Positions 13,542 to 15,263 of a DNA stretch of 46,496 nt are shown here, in pieces. Numbering within the stretch: position 1 is the stretch's first letter; each line of letters begins with the position of its first letter. Made by a program: the position numbers and the translations under genes. This stretch comes from a virus (lineage: Duplodnaviria > Heunggongvirae > Uroviricota > Caudoviricetes): the IMG/VR virus record IMGVR_UViG_2630968543_000003; one strand, written 5' to 3'. The notes beneath the pieces are model-generated. The model made no database searches and was not told where the DNA came from. It saw only the letters and a program-made list of their open reading frames with translations.

Positions 13542-13565
13542 TATGCAATTGTTTACTAAAAGTTA

Positions 13566-13728
13566 TTAAAAATGGGGCGTGGAAACGCCCCCAAAATAAA
13601 GGGTAATATATAACAGAAGGTTTATATAGTAAGAAGCAAGGCAGTGCTTCTAAAGGAAGTGGCTTGAGGGCTCCACTTATATGTTGGGGAGGCAAAGCCT
13701 CCCGCAACATATCTTTTTCGTAATCAGA
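13566..13728 (-). ncRNA. ipeX: IpeX-like structured 3' UTR of the porin gene
   Basis: About 160 nt between the porin stop (13729) and a minus-strand intrinsic terminator (stem GGGGCG/CGCCCC at 13574-13591, then U-tract); further stems at 13632-13651 and 13679-13712; matches the described position of ipeX downstream of nmpC/lc. Confidence 0.4.
13679..13718 (+). terminator. plus-strand intrinsic terminator downstream of Q (tR'-like candidate)
   Basis: About 15-bp stem with one bulge and AAA loop, followed by CTTTTT. Confidence 0.45.
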
Positions 13729-14811
13729 TTAGAACTGATACACCAGACCTACAGCGACGATGTCGTCGGTATCAATACCAGCTGTTTTGGTAAACTTACT
13801 ATCGTCAATTAAGTTGATTTTGTAATCAACAAAAGTGGACATGTTTTTATTAAAGTAGTAAGTAGCACCGACATCGACATACTTGACTAAGTCTCGGTCA
13901 CCATGAACACCAAGGTCTTTACCTTTTGACTGAAGGTAAGCAACAGATGGACGCAGACCGAAGTCAAACTGATATTGTGCTACTGCTTCAAAGTTTTGTG
14001 CTTTGTTTGCAATATGGTTATTACCAAAAACGGTCATATTCTGAGTTTCAGAATATGTGGTAGCCAGATAGATATTGTTCGCATCATATTTCAGGCCTGC
14101 AGCCCATACTTCCGCATTTTTGCCGGAGGCATTGAATTTGCTCTTACCATAGGCGACCTGACCGTCAGTGCGATCTGATTTAGCATAGGTTGCACCCACG
14201 CCGAATCCTTCATACTCATAAGTAGCGGAGAAACCGAAACCATCACCATTGGCTTCAGTTACGTCAGTGCGGTCATTTTTACCCTGATACTGAGCAGCAA
14301 AGTTCAGGCCATCGACCAGACCAAAGAAGTCGTTGTTACGATAAGTTGCAACACCAGTAGTGCGACCAGTCATGAACACATCTGTTTGGGTCCAGGTATC
14401 ACCACCGAATTCTGGCAGGACGTCAGTCCACGCACCGATGTCGTATGCTACACCGTAGTTACGGCCGTAATCGATTGAGCCGTAATCACCAAATTTCAGG
14501 CCTGCAAATGCAAGACGGGTTTTGTCTTTGGAAGAACCTTGAGATTCAGCGCGGTTGCCTTTGAATTCATATTCCCACTGACCGAAACCAGTCAGTTGAT
14601 CGTTGATTTGGGTTTCACCTTTGAAGCCAAGACGGGCATAAGTAGTATCACCATCATCTGCATCATTAGAGGAGAAGTAGTGCTTGGCATTAACTTTCCC
14701 GTATAGATCCAGCTTGTTACTGTCTTTATTATAAATTTCAGCTGCCTGAGCAGACATCGCCATCAGTACTGATGCAGCTACAGCAGAAATTGCCACTGTT
14801 AATTTTTTCAT
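13729..14811 (-). CDS. nmpC: OmpC-family general porin (NmpC/Lc-like phage porin)
   Basis: 360 aa from the ATG at 14811; signal peptide [23 protein letters not shown]; beta-barrel porin repeats; C-terminal VGLVYQF; AT-rich upstream region 14872-15180. Confidence 0.85.
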
Positions 14812-15237
14812 TGTACACCCTTTTTTTGAACTATTATTAAAAAATGATGTCACTGCGCGATAAATATTCATCTAATCAATGTGATTATTTCAAGATGTAA
14901 GTTTTAGTTTCTCATTTAATTTGTGAAGTAGATCTCTATTTTTATCTGAACCTTTTCTATCTAATCCTATTTATGGCTCTTGTTTGAACAAAAATAAATC
15001 TATTAGCTAATTTATATTAATGGAACTTATTTATAAGCAGTCTATAATTCTTTAGCTTAATTTAAACAAACTAAAAATAACATCTGAAATTATTAATTGG
15101 TTATTTGTTGAAATTTTCTTATGTATTTGTGGTGGTGTTTTGAACACTCGGTGGCATTCTCACAAATATCATTTAGTAGTTTACGTACGTAAAAAATTGG
15201 TTATGCTGTTAAGAGTAGTTACTTCGTCACACAGCTT

Positions 15238-15263
15238 AAACCCGCCGATGAGCGGGTTTTTTT
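15238..15263 (+). terminator. intrinsic terminator
   Basis: Stem AAACCCGC/GCGGGTTT with 6-nt loop, followed by seven T. Confidence 0.6.

Follow-up and report, generated by a model that had tools for sequence, protein, structure and literature searches.

How a phage-borne porin gene, together with the structured RNA at its 3' end, might operate from within the late control region of a lambdoid phage is the question raised by the locus described here. The stretch analyzed (IMG/VR virus record IMGVR_UViG_2630968543_000003, 46,496 nucleotides, hereafter the window) is a lambdoid prophage; over 23 kb it shares 99.9% identity with a prophage integrated beside mlrA in Escherichia coli FDAARGOS_1304. 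The order of features in the region of interest is the Q antiterminator gene, a 187-nucleotide gap, a porin gene on the minus strand, an AT-rich region, a plus-strand hairpin, a methyltransferase fragment and three tRNA genes. The porin gene and the 3' untranslated region (UTR) of its mRNA, which corresponds to the RNA called IpeX, very probably constitute the known Lc/NmpC porin and IpeX lysogenic-conversion element of PA-2/DLP12-type lambdoid phages, a judgment that takes in both the action of IpeX and the placement of the cassette. As for how IpeX lowers the level of the host porin OmpC, base pairing with the ompC mRNA appears to be the most likely mechanism, although it is not an established one.

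Identity and structure of the porin-IpeX cassette

The 3' UTR begins at the base after the porin stop codon, lies on the same strand as the porin and ends at the U-tract of a terminator. The gap and its flanks are 94.4% identical over 194 nucleotides to the quuD/nmpC intergenic region of DLP12 in E. coli K-12; with the sequence that follows lc in the PA-2 record (J02580.1) the identity is 93%. Where they align, the K-12 and PA-2 ipeX regions do not differ, and the mean column identity of the three-way alignment is 95%. The initial annotation had placed the UTR at the position of ipeX, and this is confirmed by the alignment of 13560-13730 to DLP12 and PA-2 ipeX (93-94% identity) together with the shared gene order. 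The first description of IpeX, in 2006, reportedly gave a 247-bp UTR, which differs from the gap, 187-189 nucleotides long in the window and in K-12. In reviews, ipeX is a 167-nucleotide DLP12 RNA that is made from the phage porin promoter within the porin transcript and is then processed, and reviews and citing papers state that IpeX represses ompC and ompF post-transcriptionally.

Of 5426 complete E. coli genomes, 2500 contain this intergenic region, and among 80 viral contigs with this Q it occurs in every contig that extends far enough. When one genome per species was searched with an exact 20-nucleotide pattern, matches were confined to E. coli and a few metagenome bins which are probably mis-assigned. 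Rfam lacks an IpeX family, and nothing in 13300-15700 reached a gathering score; weak matches at 15143-15265 (Trp_leader, E = 0.017; Leu_leader; isrK, E = 3.2) were discarded because they reflect a terminator-like shape only. The K-12 RefSeq record lists micF and micC and omits ipeX, and none of quuD, ipeX, nmpC and essD appears in the K-12 RNA-end supplements of Adams et al. 2021.

The minus-strand open reading frame (ORF) of the porin spans 13729-14871, and the biological start is the ATG at 14811, as in the RefSeq annotation of an identical gene labeled 'porin OmpC'. In a Pfam profile search the product is a full-length Porin_1 protein (PF00267, E = 2e-151, residues 29-360), with a C-terminal aromatic residue (...VYQF) and a signal-peptide-like N-terminus identical to that of Lc. 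Protein identity to PA-2 Lc is 91%, and the differences, including insertions and deletions, are concentrated in a few segments that are assumed to be surface loops. These matches bear out the earlier assignment of an OmpC-family porin opposite in strand to Q, and the AT-rich region proposed upstream of it is equally evident, GC content being 21-25% over 14800-15170 versus 40-55% in the flanks. A CRP site annotated in J02580.1 (1363-1383) maps to 14919-14939, about 110-130 nucleotides upstream of the porin start, and in K-12 the 199 bp upstream of nmpC serve as the promoter PnmpC (PMC11677980). The second CRP site of this PA-2 record from the 1980s (1067-1087) maps to 15214-15234, about 400 nucleotides from the porin start codon, and coincides with the first 21 bases of the predicted transcript from the late promoter PR'.

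Among related prophages (loci L055-L085) the porin gene is the more variable part, with 86-100% nucleotide identity to the window as compared with 92-99% for the IpeX region and 95-100% for Q, a pattern compatible with diversifying selection on the porin, or recombination within it, and with constraint on the 3' UTR. In one viral contig (L044, 4061-4785) an insertion of about 720 bp separates the IpeX region from the porin gene, and in K-12 (locus 4592-5786) IS5 lies 58 nucleotides short of the nmpC stop codon. The 3' end of the porin, where IpeX begins, may be prone to insertion.

Read from the minus strand, the 3' UTR folds into five hairpins. The minimum free energy (MFE) of the RNA from 13560-13731 is -54.4 kcal/mol, as against -31.9 +/- 3.8 kcal/mol for shuffled sequences (z = -5.9; 0 of 200 shuffles equaled it). 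Hairpin 1, the first IpeX stem, stands 16 nucleotides past the porin stop codon, and at the other end of the RNA the predicted intrinsic terminator has the stem GGGGCGTTTCCACGCCCC (13591-13574) followed by ATTTTT. The expectation of stable stems ending at an intrinsic terminator is upheld by these results. The terminator is predicted to keep porin transcription from entering Q in the antisense direction.

Constraint on the UTR was assessed from the loci fetched, which yielded 22 distinct variants of the region, all at least 92% identical. Variable columns make up 6 of 76 paired positions versus 22 of 96 unpaired ones (Fisher p = 0.012), and most substitutions fall in loops, namely those of hairpins 1-3 and the terminator. 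In hairpin 1 the stem is constant and the bulge base and loop vary; in the terminator the stem is likewise invariant and the loop variable. The least variable of the unpaired segments is the linker between hairpin 3 and the terminator, whose central 15 nucleotides (13608-13622) are invariant in all 22 variants.

Predicted pairing of IpeX with ompC and ompF

Pairing was computed with the porin mRNA sequences of K-12. Two helices are predicted between the linker and the ompC initiation region. In helix A, IpeX AACCUUCUGUUAUAU (13608-13622) pairs with ompC AUAUAACAGAGGGUU over 15 bp, one of them G.U, covering the Shine-Dalgarno sequence GAGGG at -13 to -9; in helix B, IpeX CCUUUAUUU (13594-13602) pairs with ompC AAAUAAAGG over 9 bp. 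A 1 x 5 internal loop lies between the two helices, which are coaxial and together span ompC from -32 to -2, with a predicted energy of -26.7 kcal/mol that was reached by none of 1000 shuffled linkers and by none of 126 background initiation regions from phage and host loci. Both helices also form when full-length IpeX is co-folded with ompC from -81 to +40, and hairpins 1 and 3 and the terminator are kept (net -18.4 kcal/mol). IpeX thus has, as a predicted 24 bp, the conserved accessible segment complementary to a target ribosome-binding region that is a trait of base-pairing small RNAs (sRNAs). Identity of the ompC leader (5' UTR) is itself 99% or higher in 5367 of 5370 E. coli genomes. In addition, no other contiguous complement to ompC -40 to +5 in the 46.5-kb window, both strands considered, is as long as the 15-nucleotide run at 13608-13622; the next longest has 13 nucleotides.

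The same part of ompC is a predicted target of the sRNA MicC. The 5' end of MicC, GUUAUAUGCCUUUAUUG, and the IpeX segment GUUAUAU-AUUAC-CCUUUAUUU are both complementary to ompC AAUAAAGGCAUAUAAC, and the two predicted duplexes, at overlapping sites, are of nearly the same energy (-26.5 kcal/mol for MicC versus -26.7 kcal/mol for IpeX). With ompF a shorter duplex is predicted, in which IpeX UAUAUUACCCUU pairs with a stretch beginning GAGGGUAAUA that holds the Shine-Dalgarno sequence and start codon (-18.6 kcal/mol). The initiation region of the phage porin itself lacks the site and gives only -15.2 kcal/mol with the linker (rank 18 of 126), so the phage porin would be expected to escape repression. 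Whole-molecule duplexes of IpeX with targets of 140-170 nucleotides were also computed and were discarded, the calculation returning unrealistic end-to-end duplexes with z of only -1.3 to -1.9.

On this evidence IpeX can be viewed as a phage-borne mimic of the MicC seed that silences host porins by occluding the ribosome-binding site, with weaker pairing to ompF, and a probability of about 0.55 is assigned to this reading. Several points weigh against it. Energies of -26.7 kcal/mol or lower with the same ompC target were obtained for 56 of 23228 phage windows of 41 nucleotides, located at 25 places that are mostly GC-rich, so the energy by itself is not unique. Weight was placed instead on the length of the contiguous run, on composition-matched windows and on the overlap with the MicC-complementary stretch; among the phage windows with GC content of 30% or less, the IpeX linker scores best. 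For the ompF duplex the departure from chance is modest, 23 of 1000 shuffles being as good. The plus strand of the UTR folds nearly as well as the minus strand (z = -5.0), and structure by itself therefore cannot identify the functional strand. Compensatory changes were seen in none of the 38 predicted pairs among the 22 variants, which are too close to one another for covariation to appear, so that this count is silent either way. The expression of IpeX in this phage, its ends and its effect on OmpC are carried over by homology. Finally, the 2006 abstract is said to have stated that the part of ompC needed for inhibition showed no complementarity to the RNA.

The last point leads to the possibility that IpeX acts without base pairing, the structured UTR titrating or recruiting a protein (for example Hfq, ProQ, a ribonuclease or a ribosomal component) and the complementarity being fortuitous. 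The effect of IpeX on ompC was reportedly Hfq-independent and that on ompF Hfq-dependent, and the first of these, like the absence of complementarity, speaks for such a mechanism. The wording of a 2025 review, according to which the mechanism does not rest on complementarity alone, agrees with it as well. The four stable hairpins of IpeX could bind proteins, and duplex energies just as low occur at 25 other places in the phage. This alternative is nevertheless judged unlikely, though it deserves to be taken seriously. A fortuitous match would have to account for the longest ompC complement in 93 kb of sequence falling inside the 166-nucleotide IpeX with a coaxial 9-bp helix next to it, for its overlap with the predicted MicC stretch at equal predicted stability, and for the pairing segment being the part of the unpaired UTR that varies least. 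The difference between a long ompC duplex and a short ompF duplex could, for its part, fit the reported contrast in Hfq dependence.

Alternatively, the UTR in single copy could amount to back-to-back terminators and an mRNA-stabilizing structure, the trans effect being a multicopy artifact and OmpC being lost through competition for export or assembly. IpeX reportedly came to light as a multicopy suppressor, as this explanation would have it; synthesis of an lc transcript that included the 3' end is, however, also said to have inhibited OmpC. The comparable folding of the two strands is compatible with paired terminators, and in clinical isolates the level of ipeX transcripts showed no clear correlation with OmpC (PMC7177473). 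The linker has no role in termination, yet it is nearly invariant where hairpin loops vary, and it is the linker that carries the ompC complementarity, which makes this explanation quite improbable.

Position of the late promoter

The initial annotation held that the interval between Q and the porin must also carry the Q-dependent late promoter, so that two regulatory systems would overlap on opposite strands. Neither proposition survives the comparison with related phages. A PR' homologue lies beyond the porin gene, with a -35 element TTTACG (15180-15185), a spacer of 16 nucleotides and a -10 element TATGCT (15202-15207), followed by GTTAAGAGTAGTTAC, a hairpin and T7; the predicted start is near 15214, and the terminator scan called a plus-strand terminator at 15238-15259 with the T7 behind it. 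The PR' box TTTACGWWCGTAAAAA occurs as a single copy in the window, at 15180-15195 on the plus strand and 1639 nucleotides past the Q stop codon, and each related locus that extends this far also has it once, in all cases past the porin. About 100 nucleotides of this region align with the PR' of H-19B and Sakai Sp5, where it overlaps the end of Q, and with a site upstream of stx1 in POCJ13. The PR' start of Sakai has been mapped by differential RNA sequencing (dRNA-seq) 258 nucleotides upstream of the 3' end of the terminator tR' (Sy et al. 2020, PMC7547250), and counting 258 nucleotides back from the end of the Sakai terminator T-run leads to a start 7 nucleotides after the TATCAT hexamer of the same module. 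By homology with this mapped promoter, Q-dependent read-through would be expected from the PR' in the window. The position directly downstream of Q that is typical of PR' in the Q21 family is not the one found here, and a scan of 13542-13728 for sigma-70-like promoters gave none on either strand.

Since the PR' homologue lies beyond the porin, the porin cassette is inserted between Q and PR'. It follows as well that late transcription beginning near 15214 would never cross the porin gene, which would not be transcribed antisense during lytic growth, and that the IpeX RNA would not overlap the PR'/tR' leader. A placement of PR' and tR' in the gap on the plus strand, with IpeX antisense to a 6S-like late leader and late transcription crossing the porin antisense, is very improbable and was rejected on homology evidence: although the gap has -10-like plus-strand hexamers (TAATAT at 13604-13609 and TATAGT at 13625-13630) with a hairpin and T5 about 90 nucleotides on (13679-13718), and although a related Q in phage Lambda_2E9 is followed by promoter-like sequence, a terminator and an opposite-strand gene, the gap lacks similarity to any PR', the PR' homologue of the closest Q relatives (76-80% amino acid identity) is the one at 15180-15214, and a terminator inserted into the corresponding gap of K-12 had no effect on IS5 downstream (PMC11677980).

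Within the gap, the plus-strand hairpin and T5 at 13679-13718 are most simply regarded as the end of the Q transcription unit, and together with 13574-13591 they would form a pair of terminators separating the convergent Q and porin genes. Such a role agrees with the K-12 result, in which the extra terminator in the quuD-nmpC gap changed nothing downstream and which its authors took to mean that transcripts from the quuD side do not run through the gap (PMC11677980). The plus-strand terminator proposed at 13679-13718 is thus borne out as to its hairpin, C and T5, but the simple terminator scan did not call it. The broader suggestion that the cassette is bounded by terminators fits what was found, terminator-like hairpins being present on both sides (13679-13718 with 13574-13591, and 15238-15259). 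Coordinates of the features are collected in Table 1.

Table 1. Features of the Q-porin-PR' block, by position in the window
Feature	Position	Strand	Basis
Q antiterminator, 127 amino acids, QuuD type (Q21 family)	13158..13541	+	Pfam, protein identity, PDB match
IpeX orthologue, porin mRNA 3' UTR, 166 nucleotides	13563..13728	-	Homology to DLP12/PA-2 ipeX, fold; RNA ends inferred
Intrinsic terminator of porin/IpeX transcript (stem 13574-13591, U-tract 13568-13572)	13568..13591	-	Terminator scan
Nearly invariant 41-nucleotide AU-rich linker CUUACUAUAUAAACCUUCUGUUAUAUAUUACCCUUUAUUUU between hairpin 3 and terminator	13593..13633	-	Variant alignment, duplex prediction
IpeX hairpins 2 (13657-13678) and 3 (13632-13651)	13632..13678	-	MFE and centroid structures
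Hairpin 1, 15-bp stem with one bulge (13679-13712); on plus strand then C and T5 at 13714-13718	13679..13718	both	Fold
Lc/NmpC-type porin, 360 amino acids, signal peptide	13729..14811	-	Pfam Porin_1, alignment to PA-2 Lc
AT-rich porin control region	14812..15179	-	GC content; PA-2 CRP-site homologue at 14919-14939
PR' homologue and hairpin 15238-15259	15180..15266	+	Alignment with H-19B, POCJ13, Sakai Sp5

The Q protein matches PF06530 (E = 7e-54) and the solved structure of Q21 in the PDB (E = 4e-8); it shares 96% identity with K-12 QuuD and 76-80% with its counterparts in POCJ13, H-19B and Sakai Sp5. The block from Q to the PR' hairpin (13158-15261) is collinear with DLP12 and PA-2, and homology to both stops at 15261, within the T-tract that follows the hairpin. 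In DLP12 the holin gene essD begins about 120 nucleotides past the end of the homology, and a Q(DLP12)-responsive promoter upstream of essD has been reported.

Directly upstream of Q (11333-13158) are genes for a toprim-domain protein of 322 amino acids and for a 285-amino-acid protein without a Pfam match, and the nin-region gene set that precedes Q in DLP12 and H-19B is absent. Directly after the PR' hairpin, at 15262-15600, is a C-terminal DNA methyltransferase fragment (Pfam N6_N4_Mtase, profile positions 135-220 only), which looks like a recombination scar at the right edge of the Q-porin-PR' block; in Sakai Sp5 a shorter piece of this gene survives 3' of tR'. The junction 3' of Q also carries other genes in related phages, an opposite-strand Blc lipocalin gene standing directly after a closely related Q in Lambda_2E9 (locus 2879-3560) and a 197-amino-acid ORF separating Q and PR' in POCJ13 (locus 3013-3606), and it seems to be a recurrent insertion site for accessory genes.

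The first tRNA gene (15641-15716) is called tRNA-Met (anticodon CAT) by ARAGORN, and an identical gene is tRNA-Ile in RefSeq; the Sakai equivalent is ileZ2, whose anticodon is likewise cat. On the 3' side of the tRNA cluster are full-length Rfam matches to STnc100 (131.7 bits, 15968-16176, plus strand) and AsxR (63 bits, equal to the gathering score, 16180-16232, minus strand). AsxR is described as an anti-stx2 sRNA, and its occurrence in a non-Stx prophage may for that reason be of interest. At the position that stx occupies in Stx phages, the window has a DUF1737 gene and a gene for a 597-amino-acid SASA/DUF6645 esterase-like protein (16385-18345).

Proposed working of the cassette and comparison with known systems

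In the scheme proposed here, transcription of the porin would start at an AT-rich, CRP-associated promoter of its own and run leftward, in the direction of Q, and the porin mRNA would carry the structured 166-nucleotide IpeX as a 3' UTR ending at an intrinsic terminator just short of the Q stop codon. IpeX, either within the porin mRNA or after processing, would lower the synthesis of host OmpC and OmpF, and the lysogen would therefore swap OmpC for the phage porin. The nearly invariant single-stranded linker would pair with ompC mRNA from -32 to -2, hiding the Shine-Dalgarno sequence and overlapping the predicted MicC stretch; a weaker duplex would form at the Shine-Dalgarno sequence and start codon of ompF, and the phage porin, whose initiation region is without the site, would be spared. 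The cassette would sit between Q and PR' (15180-15214), with the two hairpins of the gap holding the convergent Q and porin transcripts apart.

The cassette as such is already known: it is textbook lysogenic conversion, 94-100% identical to described elements and present in nearly half of complete E. coli genomes. For annotation, the point to be made is that the late promoter of this widespread phage group is beyond the porin and not beside Q, a placement that refines the annotation, matches earlier work on DLP12 and leaves the classification unchanged. For some twenty years the mechanism of IpeX has been called unknown or unconventional, and a specific 24-bp duplex offers a testable proposal. 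If it is correct, base pairing would overturn the conclusion of 'no complementarity, novel mechanism' that has stood since 2006. To our knowledge the predicted IpeX-ompC duplex is unreported, and it is the only part of the account with some novelty. OmpC serves as the receptor of PA-2, according to the older literature. Many clinical E. coli carry IpeX, and the levels of OmpC and OmpF influence both the entry of antibiotics and susceptibility to phages; a simple mechanism, if true, would make the effect of IpeX predictable from sequence.

Three known systems can be compared with the one described here. The closest is IpeX of DLP12 and PA-2 (Castillo-Keller, Vuong and Misra 2006, J Bacteriol 188:576), which has the same position and strand directly 3' of the nmpC or lc stop codon, the same length class, the same terminator and an identical pairing linker, and which differs by substitutions that are mostly in loops, by one base atop hairpin 2 and by a U-run that is 1 nucleotide longer than here. 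The flanking genes are those of PA-2 Lc and DLP12 NmpC, and so is the control region with its counterpart of the annotated CRP site, but unlike nmpC of K-12, which is interrupted by IS5, the porin gene is intact.

The second is the PR'-tR' leader of Stx phages (StxS; PMC7547250), with which 15180-15266 shares the -35 and -10 elements, the initial transcribed region and the first hairpin. Homology stops past that hairpin, and the body of StxS and the '+258' terminator are therefore absent from the window. In H-19B and Sp5, PR' overlaps the end of Q, whereas here it is 1.64 kb away, past the porin cassette; the separation of Q and PR' in POCJ13 is similar in kind.

The third is MicC, with which IpeX shares a predicted target. 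MicC pairs through a seed at its 5' end, whereas the predicted seed of IpeX is internal, lies just upstream of the terminator, is interrupted by a 5-nucleotide loop and reaches across the Shine-Dalgarno sequence. IpeX comes from the 3' UTR of an mRNA and has no overall homology to MicC, and membership in the MicC family is not claimed for it; the likeness proposed is one of seed and target.

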